Virus record (IMG/VR): IMGVR_UViG_3300009160_000036
Span: 14,597 to 78,596 of that record
DNA from: a virus
DNA length: 64,000 bases
Strand: one strand, 5' to 3'
Within the stretch, counting starts at the first letter, position 1. Each line of letters starts with the position of its first letter. This document shows, piece by piece, positions 1,162 through 48,295 of the stretch. The position numbers and the translations under genes are program-made. Below the pieces are notes generated by a model, which saw only the letters and a program-made list of their open reading frames with translations, was not told the origin of the DNA and searched no databases.

Positions 1162-1755
1162 ATGGCAAGAGGCTACTCACAGTCCAGAAGCGAAAGCGCC
1201 CCCGATGGCAGAGCCAAATGGGAAGCGATGCAGGGCAAGAAGAGCATTGAAGCTCTTGCCCGCGTCAAGACCCGCCTTGGCAATGGCGACGTGGGCAATG
1301 GCGTCCTCGCAGATGGGAAACTGACCCTGCGCGACGATGACATCAAGTATCTCACGGAGAGCATGATTGGTCCCAAGAACGAAATCTCCGACATGTTCGA
1401 CGAAGGCTATCCCGGTAAGACTAATTACAGGGCATACGACGCGGTGCAAACCCTCCACTTCTATCCCGAAAACACCGACAAGTTCGCTGGCGACATGGCT
1501 GGCTACATCGAGTCTGCCGCCTTCAAGCTTGAACCTAGAGACTATACCAACGACGCCAACTCTGGTGAAGCATACAATCCGGGCAGGGAGTTTGTCGAAG
1601 TTGACCCAGAGGTCCTTCAGGCAGACTACTTGTTCGCATTTGGCGTCGAGCTGGATGACAACTCGGCGAAGCGCCTAGCAGAGTCGTTCCGGGAAGCCCT
1701 TGGCGAGTCCATCGAGCAGTGGGCTGAAGACCGAGAAGAAAGACGGAGACGCTAA
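1162..1755 (+). CDS. MARG-tag protein 1 (acidic, unknown function)
   Basis: Starts MARGYSQSRSE; TGGACA element at 1141. Confidence 0.85.
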   Translation: MARGYSQSRSESAPDGRAKWEAMQGKKSIEALARVKTRLGNGDVGNGVLADGKLTLRDDDIKYLTESMIGPKNEISDMFDEGYPGKTNYRAYDAVQTLHFYPENTDKFAGDMAGYIESAAFKLEPRDYTNDANSGEAYNPGREFVEVDPEVLQADYLFAFGVELDDNSAKRLAESFREALGESIEQWAEDREERRRR

Positions 1756-1758
1756 TTT

Positions 1759-2316
1759 ATGGCACGAGGATACTCACAAGCAAGGTCTGAAAATCTTGAT
1801 GCTGGATACAGGCTCAAGACTTTTGGCGAGAACGAGAAGCAAGGTCGGGTAGAAAAACTTGACCGGCTCGTCGAGGGGAAATACATCACCGCCAAGGCGG
1901 CCGAGGTTCTTAAGGAAGACGGGTCGCAACATGATGGTCGTTATTACAATGAGTCCTCCTTAAAAAGGACGTTTGGAAAAGACTTTTTCAAAAAGGGTTG
2001 GGTTCAAGAAAAGAGTGACTTCATCCCCAATGCCGTGATAGAGTGGAAGAATCTTGGTGGACAAATCTTTTACAAGGTTAAAGACATAGAGATGTTCGGT
2101 GGCGTGCCTTACCAGAAGGACGGCAAGTATGTCGGAATGACCTACCTTATGTCGCTTGACGAAAAGGTTCTTGCCGAGAACGGAGGCAGATACAAAACGA
2201 TTAAAGAGGCGATTGATGTTCTGGAGACAAACAGCCAGATTTCCCAAAAGCAGTCGGGCGATGCAATGCAGTCTGCATACGAAGCTGCTGGAAGCCCTCG
2301 TGGTTGGTGGGAGTAA
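1759..2316 (+). CDS. MARG-tag protein 2
   Basis: Starts MARGYSQARSE, 3 nt after the previous stop. Confidence 0.85.
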   Translation: MARGYSQARSENLDAGYRLKTFGENEKQGRVEKLDRLVEGKYITAKAAEVLKEDGSQHDGRYYNESSLKRTFGKDFFKKGWVQEKSDFIPNAVIEWKNLGGQIFYKVKDIEMFGGVPYQKDGKYVGMTYLMSLDEKVLAENGGRYKTIKEAIDVLETNSQISQKQSGDAMQSAYEAAGSPRGWWE

Positions 2317-2347
2317 GCCTAGTCGTTGACAGCGACCCAAGAACACT

Positions 2348-2941
2348 ATGGCAGACAAAACCGGTATCTGTGAATGTGGCGACCCCTCTTGCACCTGCAA
2401 GCCGGGAACCTGCGACTGCATCCAGCCCTCCGAGAAGTTCCTCCCCAAGGAGGACAAGAAGCCCATTACCAACCAAACCATTAACGCCCCTGTGAATCCT
2501 ACATCTGACCCCGCCAAACAAAAGGGCGAATACAACGCCCTTGCCTCCGAAATCCCCCTCGACCTCATTCCTTACAAGGATAAGCAAGCTGCCGTCGCTG
2601 ATGCTGGCAAAACCGACTTCCCCTTCTGGTCCAAGGCTATTACGCGCCTACAAGAGGCGGTGGCTCAAAACATTGAGCGCCAAGCTACCAGCCAGACCAA
2701 GTTCACCTCAAAGCCCTGTTCTTGGAGAATCGGGAAGGATGGACTCCGGGAAGTAGCTTACAACTACATCGAAGAAGTCCGCACCGACATCAACATCTCT
2801 GGCTCTATGGCGTCCAGCCCCAAGACTATGGTGTCCTATGCCACCGTTGACAAGCGAGTGGTGCTCTCAAAGCACTTGGATGACAAGTCTGCTACCCTTG
2901 CCTCCCAGACTTACAACGAGTTCCTTGGTCTGACCAAGTAA
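2348..2941 (+). CDS. Hypothetical protein with Cys-rich, metallothionein-like N-terminus
   Basis: CECGDPSCTCKPGTCDC at the N-terminus; TTGACA element at 2326. Confidence 0.7.
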   Translation: MADKTGICECGDPSCTCKPGTCDCIQPSEKFLPKEDKKPITNQTINAPVNPTSDPAKQKGEYNALASEIPLDLIPYKDKQAAVADAGKTDFPFWSKAITRLQEAVAQNIERQATSQTKFTSKPCSWRIGKDGLREVAYNYIEEVRTDINISGSMASSPKTMVSYATVDKRVVLSKHLDDKSATLASQTYNEFLGLTK

Positions 2942-2945
2942 GACC

Positions 2946-46057: not shown

Positions 46058-46125
46058 GTGCCCAAGTAAGATTTGTCCACAATCTTCTTGACATTTCTCA
46101 TAGGTGGACACATAACAATTATCAA

Positions 46126-46641
46126 ATGGCACGAGGATACTCAAATGCACAAAGCGAGCGGCTTTCCCGCACCGTCAACGTCATCGCAATGATGGCCAAA
46201 GACAGGGGCATCGACCCCAGCTCAATGACCTTGGGTGCTGCCGAGAAGTTCGTCCTAGCACGTTACAATGCTCCGGGTGAGAGAGGTCGCTTCGAGGCAG
46301 ACAAGACCACCCTCCGGGATGAACACGGCGAACAGTCCTTCGAGATGCGTGCCAATGGAATGCGTGCCCCTTCTTACTCCAAGTGGGTAAAGGACAAGGT
46401 GGCTATGATGCTCTTCTCCGATAAGACCGCCAAGGACCGCGCCGACTTTGAAGCAACCCCTGAAGGTGCTGCCCTCCGAGCCACCAAGGAAGCCACCTAC
46501 AAGGCTATGATGGCAAGGTTTGAGAAGGGTGCAGTCCAAATCCCTTACGAGGAACAGAGGAAGCTGGATGCCGCTAATGATGTGGCTGACAAAGCCCTTC
46601 GAGCCGCCCAGAGGAATTGGGAACGCCTTAACAACCGCTAA
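46126..46641 (+). CDS. MARG-tag protein 19
   Basis: Starts MARGYSNAQSE; TGGACA at 46105. Confidence 0.85.
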   Translation: MARGYSNAQSERLSRTVNVIAMMAKDRGIDPSSMTLGAAEKFVLARYNAPGERGRFEADKTTLRDEHGEQSFEMRANGMRAPSYSKWVKDKVAMMLFSDKTAKDRADFEATPEGAALRATKEATYKAMMARFEKGAVQIPYEEQRKLDAANDVADKALRAAQRNWERLNNR

Positions 46642-46660
46642 TTGACAAGCCTACAAGAAT

Positions 46661-47275
46661 ATGGCCAGAGGATACTCCCAATCTCGTTCAGAAAATCCGA
46701 CCCAGCGGCTTGATTCGCTCTCTCAACAACCCATTCCCAATGCTAATGCCGCATTGATTGGCAATGGTCTTGGGAGCGTTGAAAAGCTTGCCCTCGAACT
46801 TAAGGGCAGTCGCGCCTATGATGGCAACTATGAGACAATGAGCGACAAGGACATCGAAGAAACCGCCCAGCACGTCAAGGAAGTCAATGACAAGGCAAAG
46901 TCTGATATCGACAAGCTTCTTGCCGGCGGTTGGGACGAAGACAAAATCCAGAAAGCTTATGAGATAAAATCTACTCTTTCAAAACTCTGGCAACAAAACG
47001 CCACTCCTAATCCAAATGACCACTTTGCCCACGAAGCGGTAAACATTGACCGCATCGACATCACCGCCCGTGAAGTGAACGAATACAAGGAAATGCAGTA
47101 TGAAATCAACGAGCTTCTTATGGAGGACGGCCCTCAAGGAGGCGGGTTTGACGAAGGACGTCGAGTATCCAGCGACCGTGAAGACGAACTATCCAACGAC
47201 ATGGGTGACATTGAGCGTAAGTTTGTCACTCAACTCAAGGACCTTCGCACCCGAATCGAGAGGATTACCGGTTAA
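46661..47275 (+). CDS. MARG-tag protein 20 (acidic)
   Basis: Starts MARGYSQSRSE; TTGACA at 46642. Confidence 0.85.
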   Translation: MARGYSQSRSENPTQRLDSLSQQPIPNANAALIGNGLGSVEKLALELKGSRAYDGNYETMSDKDIEETAQHVKEVNDKAKSDIDKLLAGGWDEDKIQKAYEIKSTLSKLWQQNATPNPNDHFAHEAVNIDRIDITAREVNEYKEMQYEINELLMEDGPQGGGFDEGRRVSSDREDELSNDMGDIERKFVTQLKDLRTRIERITG

Positions 47276-47278
47276 TTT

Positions 47279-48295
47279 ATGGCAAGAGGATATTCCACCG
47301 CCCGCTCTGAACAGAGCGACGCTATGCGCAAAGAAGCCACTCGGCTTATTGATGCCGCCCAAAAGATTGAAGCCAAGGAGCGTGAGGATGCGGCCGCGAA
47401 AGCCATCGCCGATGCGAAAGCCAAAGCCGAAGCCCTTGTTGCTTCCGGCAAGATTCCGACGGTAGACGAAGTGACTGCTGCTCAAAGGGCAGCCAATGCG
47501 TTTTGGGAAGAAAACAAGCCAGCGATTAAAACAGGCTTATACAACGCTAATGCTTGGGCGTCGGAAAAGGCATTGGCAAAGAAGTATCAAGCAATGGTCG
47601 AAAGAGTCCGAGAAATGGAAGAAGAACGAAAGGCCCCTGAAAAGCTCAAGGAGCTTGCCGATGCCGCCCTGCGCGACAAGGCCGAAAAGCAAGCCATAAA
47701 TATTACCAAAAAGGGCAACGACTCTGGCGACAAAGCCACAAACGAAGGCCCCAAGGCACAGAAACTTGCCCTCAAGGTCGAGAAGATTGCGACCAAGGCG
47801 TCCATCGCCGCCGATAAATACTTTGGAGCGAAGGACAAGAAGGGCGTGAACGCCCAGAAGAACAAGGAGAAGATGAAGGAGCTCGTCGCAAAGCAGGTTA
47901 ATGCTATCCCCTTGGAAGTCCGCATCGCCATTCAGCAGCTTTCGAGACACAACCTTGGACAAGACTTAATGGACGCCGGCGTTAACGCCCTCAAATACAA
48001 CAAATCGAGCGGAAAAATCGTTGGTGGCGAGGACCACGAGAACGGCCGAAATGGAGACGGTGCTTTTGAATACAGCAGTTGGGGTGCTTTACGCAACGAA
48101 GCCCGCCGTGAGGGTGTGGACCAGCGCGTTGGCAACGTCACCCACAAGGGTGTCACTTACAAGTGGAAGACGGAGGATTCATCCTACAAGATTGGCTGGG
48201 ACCCGAAGCAGTTTGCTACCCACGGCAGAATTACAATCAGCGCCGGTGGTAAAACAATTTTCGAGGGCGAAGAATTGGGCATTGAAGGCGGCTGA
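47279..48295 (+). CDS. MARG-tag protein 21
   Basis: Starts MARGYSTARSE. Confidence 0.85.
   Translation: MARGYSTARSEQSDAMRKEATRLIDAAQKIEAKEREDAAAKAIADAKAKAEALVASGKIPTVDEVTAAQRAANAFWEENKPAIKTGLYNANAWASEKALAKKYQAMVERVREMEEERKAPEKLKELADAALRDKAEKQAINITKKGNDSGDKATNEGPKAQKLALKVEKIATKASIAADKYFGAKDKKGVNAQKNKEKMKELVAKQVNAIPLEVRIAIQQLSRHNLGQDLMDAGVNALKYNKSSGKIVGGEDHENGRNGDGAFEYSSWGALRNEARREGVDQRVGNVTHKGVTYKWKTEDSSYKIGWDPKQFATHGRITISAGGKTIFEGEELGIEGG

Follow-up and report, generated by a model that had tools for sequence, protein, structure and literature searches.

Background

The internal proteins of T-even phages are packaged by way of an N-terminal leader, the sole part that they share; more than 10 such genes have been found through this leader in fast-changing loci of T-even phages, and the cargo is an injected anti-defence protein (PMC12373910). 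The T4 leader ends in a glutamate, at which the head protease cuts (PMC12991175), and cleavage after glutamate is characteristic of T4-type proteases (PMC12991175, PMC10052503). DarB of phage P1 is an anti-restriction protein, the first 30 residues of which suffice to bring both DarB and a reporter into the capsid (PMC9024508). The gp245 substrates of SPN3US lose N-terminal propeptides by cleavage after A-x-E, with serine preferred at P1'; two of these propeptides are only 20-24 residues long, and many of the proteins are ejected into the host (PMC10052503). Here we analyse a short N-terminal peptide, hereafter called the tag, which is carried by 23 proteins of an uncultured phage. The DNA under study ("the window") is a stretch of 64,000 nucleotides corresponding to bases 14597-78596 of one 78,596-bp viral contig (IMG/VR record IMGVR_UViG_3300009160_000036), which has no end repeats. 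The part of the same contig upstream of the window is cited in L001 coordinates. Open reading frames (ORFs) are named by their start positions.

An N-terminal peptide shared by unrelated proteins

A first-pass annotation of the window had listed 21 ORFs beginning with M(A/S)RG. All 21 start coordinates do give such ORFs on the + strand, with products of 122-338 amino acids (aa). Two extra copies were identified in the upstream part of the contig (L001:2846 and L001:3478), bringing the total to 23 genes, or 18.8% of the contig. No - strand ORF of at least 50 aa begins with M(A/S)RG. The 11-residue form MARGY-x-x-[SA]-x-S-E is present in 19 of the 23 proteins, among which M1, R3, G4, Y5 and E11 are invariant. 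The mean pairwise identity of these 19 proteins is 0.79 over residues 1-11 and 0.08 over residues 12-22. After removal of the first 12 residues, an all-against-all BLASTP comparison gave nothing below E = 0.004 save one clear pair, 8333 and 47279, which have about 40 residues in common after the tag. With the exception of this pair, the proteins thus diverge completely beyond a conserved peptide, as first described.

The codons differ freely between copies, again in agreement with the first description. Arg3 is encoded by five codons from both the AGR and CGN boxes, Ser10 by TCN as well as AGC codons, and third-position identity over the tag is 39%. The only bias seen is a leaning of codons 2-6 towards A-ending forms (GCA in 12/18; TCA in 8/16 versus 9% genome-wide). 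Synonymous sites in the tag are therefore not constrained, which identifies the peptide, and not the nucleic acid, as the object of selection and leaves the claim of conservation at the peptide level standing.

The motif occurs 21 times at an N-terminus and never internally in this genome, the corresponding counts being 17/0 and 10/0 in two relatives. All 23 proteins are hydrophilic, their highest 19-residue Kyte-Doolittle mean being below 1.0 throughout, and the tag itself is polar, which confirms that it has no hydrophobic core. A Sec, Tat or lipoprotein signal is ruled out, as no hydrophobic h-region or twin-arginine signal was found in the 23 proteins. Some members depart from the common form. 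ORF 2946 has a GTG start, and 5304, 7178 and 16961 begin at ATGs within longer mechanical ORFs. Only the beginning of the tag is present in 3506 (MARGNSTRRNLAPE), 16327 (MARGYYQASGTSRSN) and 39330 (MARGFGGGYARG), and 19519 exhibits an 18-residue version (MSRGYTTGVRGGFQARSE). The tag is a strictly N-terminal, peptide-level, modular add-on to unrelated soluble proteins.

Tag flavours in related phages

Relatives of this phage were located via their capsid and portal proteins. Their proteins carry tags of different flavours: MARGSNSREGRAARSE in 14 copies on a 43-kb fragment (G002), MATRSxxQxLASD in about 24 copies in a 74-kb record (G006), MARSY...VRSD in 2 copies (G009), MARGNNQSQSSVRSE in 4 copies directly 5' of the portal gene (L015), and MARGSSKANSE, MARGTSRAQSE and MARGQSRAMSE in one or two copies each in other relatives. 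The flavours are 11, 13, 15 or 16 residues long and differ greatly between close relatives with near-identical head genes. They follow a common plan, in which a small residue at position 2 and a basic residue at position 3 or 4 are followed by a polar spacer of variable length and then by Ser-Glu or Ser-Asp; the small second residue implies that the methionine is removed. Relatives further out, which have the same head module and a portal about 58% identical, showed no recurrent N-terminus.

Scanned as a DNA pattern, MARGYSQ...E occurred at 4 loci of IMG/VR and at 8 of JGI metagenomes, each a single, unrelated chance match, and a 30-residue profile searched against 1.84 billion protein representatives retrieved only the query protein and one close relative. 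Given these near-empty searches, the exact MARGYSQ flavour is private to this lineage. The tag family as a whole is a clade-wide system with several flavours and is not unique to this phage, which weakens the interpretation offered in the first-pass annotation.

Two protein families document how orthologous cargo is retagged. The JAB-like family of ORF 19519 has 30 homologues, all from phages of this kind, and every full-length homologue bears the flavour of its own lineage. In one homologue the long version of the tag is replaced by the short MSRGYSQSRSE. Five others (P0020, P0023 and P0029-P0031) start at an internal methionine (MSQKSP... or MSAKSP...) just past the expected tag site, and are either truly untagged or the product of mis-called starts. 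The HD_4 family of L001:3478 exhibits at least five flavours on bodies 44-94% identical. In the orthologues of both families the flavour swaps with the genome, while the bodies are 40-94% identical. The outer HD_4 homologues (P0055-P0074), one of them source-named Candidatus Dormibacteria bacterium, begin at the HD domain and have no tag, which indicates that the tag has been grafted on. Since the flavour is uniform within each genome and has changed jointly on all its cargo, the simplest cause is one co-evolving, trans-acting reader per genome.

Turnover of the cargo between relatives, which the first-pass annotation had suggested looking for, is high: in eight related records, homologues were found for only about 9 of the 23. 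In one relative, a 227-aa protein (P0002) joins the first approximately 26 residues of 15039 to the body of 15621, pointing to recombination or cassette shuffling between neighbouring tagged genes. What is new here is a clade trait with lineage-specific flavours, in which orthologous cargo is retagged and the gene preceding the capsid gene often has the same start.

The tagged proteins

Twenty-two of the 23 tagged proteins have no match in Pfam, and sequence searches of PDB with three of them gave nothing meaningful. The exception in Pfam is L001:3478, a small hydrolase of the HD_4 family (RelA/SpoT-type; PF13328, 27.4 bits against a cut-off of 27.2). Its homologues carry PF13328 as well and are named (p)ppGpp synthase/HD hydrolase in their source records.

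ORF 19519 (19519..20196, 225 aa) has no Pfam match but is predicted, from its fold and motif, to be a JAB/MPN-like (JAMM) metallopeptidase. The residues E73, H112, H114, S125 and D128 are invariant across 26 homologues and make up the zinc motif E...HxH...S-x-x-D. In the structural model (predicted local distance difference test score, pLDDT, of 81) the long tag and a disordered linker precede a domain folded from about residue 56, and pLDDT is below 50 along this arm at residues 1-12 and 21-39. The best structural match is JAMM1 (Z-score 6.3, root-mean-square deviation 3.7, 104 residues aligned), followed by CBASS Cap3 (Z-score 5.8), Sst2, Rpn11, CSN5 and RadC, with Z-scores that are middling. 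The JAB-like part of the earlier proposal, that the cargos include JAB-like and ADP-ribosyltransferase (ART)-like domains, is thus supported by both motif and fold. The ART-like part is weaker: for 7178 (7178..7960, 260 aa, MARGYSQSKSE), ART families appear only as weak structural look-alikes in the Atlas, at template-modelling (TM) scores of 0.38-0.49, and there is no Pfam or PDB sequence match. Among 42 tagged proteins of the relatives, two are pentapeptide-repeat proteins, one is a GNAT and one an HD_4 protein. Judged from these sequences, it is plausible that the cargos act as anti-defence or takeover enzymes.

The other tagged ORFs of the window, like the two just described, are all on the + strand. 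The first one (1162..1755, 197 aa, MARGYSQSRSE) heads its cluster and is preceded by GGTGGACA-N15-ATG; neither it nor 1759 (1759..2316, 185 aa, MARGYSQARSE) nor the GTG-initiated 2946 (2946..3506, 186 aa, (M)ARGYSQSRSE) matches Pfam. The divergent member 3506 (3506..4222, 238 aa), the orthologue of which in G002 begins with MARGRGAGRNALSE, is followed by 4247 (4247..4894, 215 aa, MARGYSQSRSE), 5304 (5304..5963, 219 aa, MARGYGKAGSE) and 5967 (5967..6458, 163 aa, MARGYSSAMTE). After the ART look-alike comes 8333 (8333..9067, 244 aa, MARGYSQAKSE); its G002 orthologue has a tag in the style of the 16-residue flavour, starting with MARGQNASTGRTARSS, without the terminal glutamate.

Further along the window are 15039 (15039..15614, 191 aa, MARGYSQSRSE), 15621 (15621..16301, 226 aa, MSRGYSQSQSE), the divergent member 16327 (16327..16956, 209 aa), which lacks the glutamate, and 16961 (16961..17746, 261 aa, MARGYSQSKSE), the G002 orthologue of which begins with MARGNRASEGRSARSE. 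These are followed by 18204 (18204..18914, 236 aa, MARGYAQSRSE), 18914 (18914..19522, 202 aa, MARGYSSAGSE), the JAB-like ORF and 20402 (20402..20770, 122 aa, MARGYTKSNSE). Three members lie between the head and tail modules, where three had been placed between head and neck genes by the annotation: 46126 (46126..46641, 171 aa, MARGYSNAQSE), 46661 (46661..47275, 204 aa, MARGYSQSRSE) and 47279 (47279..48295, 338 aa, MARGYSTARSE).

Small untagged genes are interspersed within the tagged arrays (2348-2941, 4898-5302 and 7957-8322). The first has an upstream element of its own, and the second is 57-75% conserved in G006 and G002. The third overlaps the 3' end of 7178 by 4 nt and could encode an inhibitor of the 7178 product.

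The head module and the pre-capsid gene

The head genes are ordered as small and large terminase, portal, S49 protease, a 555-aa scaffold candidate, a 242-aa gene and the capsid protein. From the portal gene on they are all on the + strand, and their order matches B-C-nu3-D-E of phage lambda. The portal protein (34862..36601) belongs to the lambda family (PF05136). The head maturation protease (36598..37605) is of the S49, lambda gpC type (PF01343). The product of 37635..39302 is an acidic coiled-coil protein of 555 aa with conserved ends and, by position and composition, is presumably the scaffolding protein. The major capsid protein (40121..41035) falls in phrog_283, with a weak match to the P22 coat protein and not to lambda E. 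In PHROGs, no match was found for the scaffold candidate, the pre-capsid protein or nearly all tail genes, and the scaffold candidate matched no family. Among these products, the portal and the scaffold protein are candidate readers of the tag, and the S49 protease is a candidate reader or cutter.

The conserved 242-aa gene between the scaffold and capsid genes (39330..40058), here called the pre-capsid gene, is the member that the first-pass annotation had placed inside the head operon. It does encode a protein with the MARG start (MARGFGGG...VRRDAE), but the YSQSRSE part is missing. Its first 4-5 residues equal the local tag flavour in 7 of the 10 lineages in which both can be read: the start is MARGF in this phage, MARGG in lineages with MARG tags, MATRR where the tag begins with MATRS and MARSY where it begins with MARSY. 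The conserved body is preceded by a variable, glycine-rich segment of 15-35 residues, the last of which is acidic (...RRDAE, ...SRAE or ...NAE). The AlphaFold model of the pre-capsid protein has a pLDDT of 56 and allows no fold to be called, and the Atlas gave no lead. The association of tagged genes with the head module is seen again in several relatives, in which tagged genes adjoin head genes.

The two genes right after the capsid gene (41111-41311 and 41311-44031) have another N-terminal module in common, which is about 55 aa long. The 906-aa member of this pair has an end rich in cysteine-rich CGTY...NGSC repeats. The module is possibly a capsid-surface anchor with variable extensions.

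Upstream element and transcription

An element of the form [GT][TG]GACA-N5-CCA/CAA lies 13-16 nt, a short and constant spacing, upstream of the ATG of 11 tagged genes, which are the first of their runs (among them 1162, 4247, 7178, 8333, 15039, 16327, 18204, 20402, 46126 and 46661), and of 9 structural or packaging operon starts (among them 34614, 41111, 44444, 44964, 48316, 59466, 61465 and 63128). No Shine-Dalgarno site was found before any gene, either here or in the Verrucomicrobia phage P8625. Together with the closeness of the element to the ATG, this implies that leaders are very short or lacking and that the geometry of the promoters is unusual. An upstream element common to the tagged clusters and the structural genes had been proposed before and is confirmed. 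Late expression does not follow from it, because a looser form of the element stands before the RecT gene discussed below.

Contigs from three lake metatranscriptome studies (X5-X7) match, at 99% identity or more, parts of 1162/1759, 4247-5304, 8333, 16327/16961, 18204 and 18914/19519, as well as the RecT-DUF669 region; the deepest match is to the DUF669 gene (13807-14255). These contigs give no timing, strand or level, stretches that they leave uncovered are meaningless, and carry-over of DNA is possible.

The genome and its setting

The sequences originate from lake and freshwater metagenomes. The contigs bearing homologues are 73-91 kb long, from which the full genome is probably somewhat larger than the 78,596-bp contig. 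The phage, about 80-90 kb in size and with a head module of the lambda type, probably has a host related to Verrucomicrobiota. The closest cultured phage by capsid protein, and the sole match, is P8625 (33% identity). Common N-termini were looked for among the P8625 proteins and none was found. Megablast and tblastn searches with the head region gave no match to cultured phages.

Between the tagged arrays lie a recombination module (window 11944-14224; RecT, PDDEXK DUF3799 and DUF669) and further genes (window 9162-10499 on the - strand, and L001 1736-2821, 4102-4776 and 13199-14596), which include N6/N4 and C5 DNA methylase, PAPS-reductase-like and ParB_N proteins. A stretch of 2.45 kb between the large terminase and the portal operon (window 32158-34613) contains no credible ORF. 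ARAGORN found no tRNA in it, and Rfam gave a weak, partial tmRNA-like match at 33229-33275, which scores 17.5 bits where the gathering score is 47. The mechanical ORFs of this stretch are 77-97% conserved in relatives, which suggests that the DNA or RNA itself is conserved.

Discussion

The best fit to these observations is a virion-loading (capsid-targeting) tag of the T4 kind, an explanation that we hold tentatively and to which we give somewhat less than an even chance. Met1 would be removed, and the free A-R-G-Y of this phage (A-T-R-S or A-R-S-Y in its sisters), together with the polar spacer leading to S-E or S-D, would form an address. One head-assembly partner of the phage (the scaffold, the S49 protease, the portal or the capsid interior) would read this address and draw the tagged proteins into the prohead. 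Carried inside the virion, the cargo would reach the next host along with the DNA and act at time zero in anti-defence or takeover; candidates are the alarmone-type HD hydrolase and the JAB/MPN peptidase and, in relatives, the pentapeptide-repeat DNA mimics and GNAT. The S49 protease may trim the tag at its S-E/S-D boundary, by a cut after the acidic residue. The flavour swapping of the JAB-like and HD_4 families speaks for such an arrangement, because one trans-acting, co-evolving reader would yield that pattern. Further points in its favour are the sharp peptide block on unrelated hydrophilic proteins, its absence from internal positions, the uniform flavour within each related genome, the tagless outer HD_4 homologues, the start of the pre-capsid protein, the neighbourhood of tagged and head genes, the common upstream element, the disordered arm bearing the tag in 19519, and the precedents in T-even phages and P1. 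The sequences establish the tag, selection on the peptide, its modularity, its joint change within each genome, its N-terminal position and its links to the head module; the reader, packaging, cleavage and injection are inferred. In a more specific form, a clade of freshwater phages would use a genome-specific and fast-evolving N-terminal code with a free A-R-G or A-T-R start and an S-E/S-D end; the S49 and scaffold head machine would read it and load 15-25 interchangeable anti-defence enzymes, encoded by a fifth of the genome, for injection. This version is conceivable and on the doubtful side.

Several observations weigh against virion loading. The pre-capsid protein starts with MPG or MPT in 3 of the 10 lineages. 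The S49 enzyme, the only protease that could be recognised (Pfam showed no other peptidase family among the remaining ORFs scanned), is not of the T4 gp21 type. We found no paper giving a cleavage specificity for S49 proteases of this kind. A cut of the lambda portal protein after Glu20 is not what its record gives: the annotated leader has 22 residues and ends in ...REYA, not in glutamate. A ...AASE site within the protease itself was considered as a cleavage motif and discarded, as relatives do not conserve it. Towards the C-terminus of the scaffold, a ...SASE/...GVD site is acidic throughout and proves nothing on cleavage. Most tagged genes share an arm of the genome with genes of DNA metabolism, among them those for RecT, a nuclease and methylases. 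At 11944, the RecT gene is preceded by a looser element (TTGACG, 12 nt 5' of the start), so the element may be the general promoter type of this phage, and it does not fix the timing of expression. Finally, 23 protein species taking up about 19% of the coding capacity are much to fit in a DNA-filled head.

Among the rival explanations, the one that survives best, though unlikely, has a reader unrelated to the virion, such as a host factor, a chaperone, a modifying enzyme, or an unfoldase or protease that sets when or how long the proteins act. The site that it recognises or processes would include the S-E/S-D end, and the proteins would act in the producing cell. Uniformity within each genome and flavour swapping call for one reader, which need not be a head protein, and the location of most tagged genes among DNA-metabolism genes would be natural under this explanation. 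On the other hand, no candidate enzyme emerged from Pfam scans of the remaining ORFs, many of which are without a family; the scans gave only S49, methylases, HNH, RecT, PDDEXK, ParB-like and PAPS-reductase-like proteins. A comparison of gene presence between five tag-bearing and three tag-free relatives singled out just two genes, the pre-capsid gene and an ORF of 84 aa, and no non-structural gene is present in all tag-bearing relatives yet absent from the tag-free ones. A reader outside the virion also leaves unexplained the match of the pre-capsid N-terminus to the tag and the adjacency of tagged genes to head genes.

It is improbable that the tag acts at the level of expression, as a nascent peptide or start-codon context setting translation in a host without Shine-Dalgarno sites. 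The lack of such sites here and in P8625, the A-ending bias of codons 2-6 and the fixed distance of 13-16 nt between the upstream element and the ATG would all be in keeping with such a role. The amino acids are kept, however, while the codons range over both arginine and both serine boxes, and flavours of 11, 13, 15 and 16 residues coexist among close relatives with near-identical head genes. Moreover, structural and replication genes in operons of the same types manage without the peptide, and the conserved acidic end is not accounted for.

Display on the outside of the capsid or export from the cell is highly improbable. The pre-capsid gene stands at the position of lambda D, and its product, with first residues equal to the tag in 7 of 10 lineages, might be a decoration protein the arm of which has been copied by the other proteins. 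Yet HD_4, JAB/MPN, GNAT and pentapeptide-repeat proteins act in the cytoplasm, and export would demand a hydrophobic or twin-arginine signal, which the tagged proteins lack. The separate module of about 55 aa (41111 and 41311) looks like the decoration anchor, and the model of the pre-capsid protein is too poor for a fold call. That the tag is a paralogy remnant, a functionless start left by common descent in a fast-diverging family, is close to refuted: the tandem gene arrays, the further residues common to 8333 and 47279 and the chimera of two neighbouring members in a relative would agree with it, but several folds and families (HD_4, JAB/MPN, pentapeptide repeat and GNAT) are represented among the bodies, the outer HD_4 homologues are tagless, identity drops abruptly from 79% to 8%, and the peptide is under purifying selection while synonymous change is free.

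If virion loading is true, the injected effectors of an uncultured phage clade could be listed from sequence alone. They would provide a catalogue of candidate anti-defence proteins, including an alarmone-type hydrolase, a JAB/MPN peptidase, pentapeptide-repeat DNA mimics, a GNAT and many proteins without a family. Capsid targeting in the style of T4 would then depend neither on T4-type proteases nor on large myovirus heads, but be a general strategy that phages with lambda-type heads had reinvented on a far larger scale relative to genome size. Were the tag a genome-specific code as outlined above, its flavours may diversify to escape host sensors. The genome-specific flavours represent a natural experiment on the co-evolution of tag and reader, and such a short portable tag could serve protein delivery by phage. 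Even without packaging, a peptide addressed to one reader on a fifth of the proteins of a phage would constitute an undescribed sorting system.

Comparison with known systems

Other phage N-terminal peptides (MNRYDIALGKKP, MNWYKxAQ and MKDAxGHGS) are unrelated in sequence to the MARGYSQ tag. In encapsulins, a short terminal peptide on unrelated enzymes docks inside a shell of the HK97 fold. These cargo peptides differ from the tag in their position, as they are mostly found at the C-terminus, and are unlike it in sequence; the shell lacks a portal, DNA and a protease.

The propeptides of head and ejection proteins of SPN3US, a phiKZ-like giant phage, resemble the tag in being N-terminal, in two cases short, and in ending with an acidic residue. 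In contrast to the present case, they are removed by a T4-type protease, are mostly 111-254 residues long, contain no one common peptide and occur in genomes of at least 240 kb. DarB of P1 has an N-terminal packaging signal. This signal has been described for DarB, its loading is stepwise and Dar-dependent, it does not belong to a multi-gene tag family and its sequence is unlike the tag.

The closest parallel is the capsid targeting sequence (CTS) of T-even phages (Ip1-3 and Alt), which is, like the tag, an N-terminal leader of about 10 residues on otherwise unrelated small proteins. The tag bears no likeness to the T4 sequence MKTYQEFIAE. It ends in [SA]-x-S-E (L-x-S-D in G006), with R, K, Q, N or G at P3, and not in I/L-x-E. 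The protease here is an S49 enzyme in a lambda-like head module, with no gp21-type protease. With 23 members, the tag family takes up 19% of a genome of about 79 kb, compared with 3 members in 169 kb in T4; its flavour changes between close relatives, and its role in packaging is a proposal. By sequence, motif and protease type the tag falls outside the T4 CTS family, and yet it may work like it.

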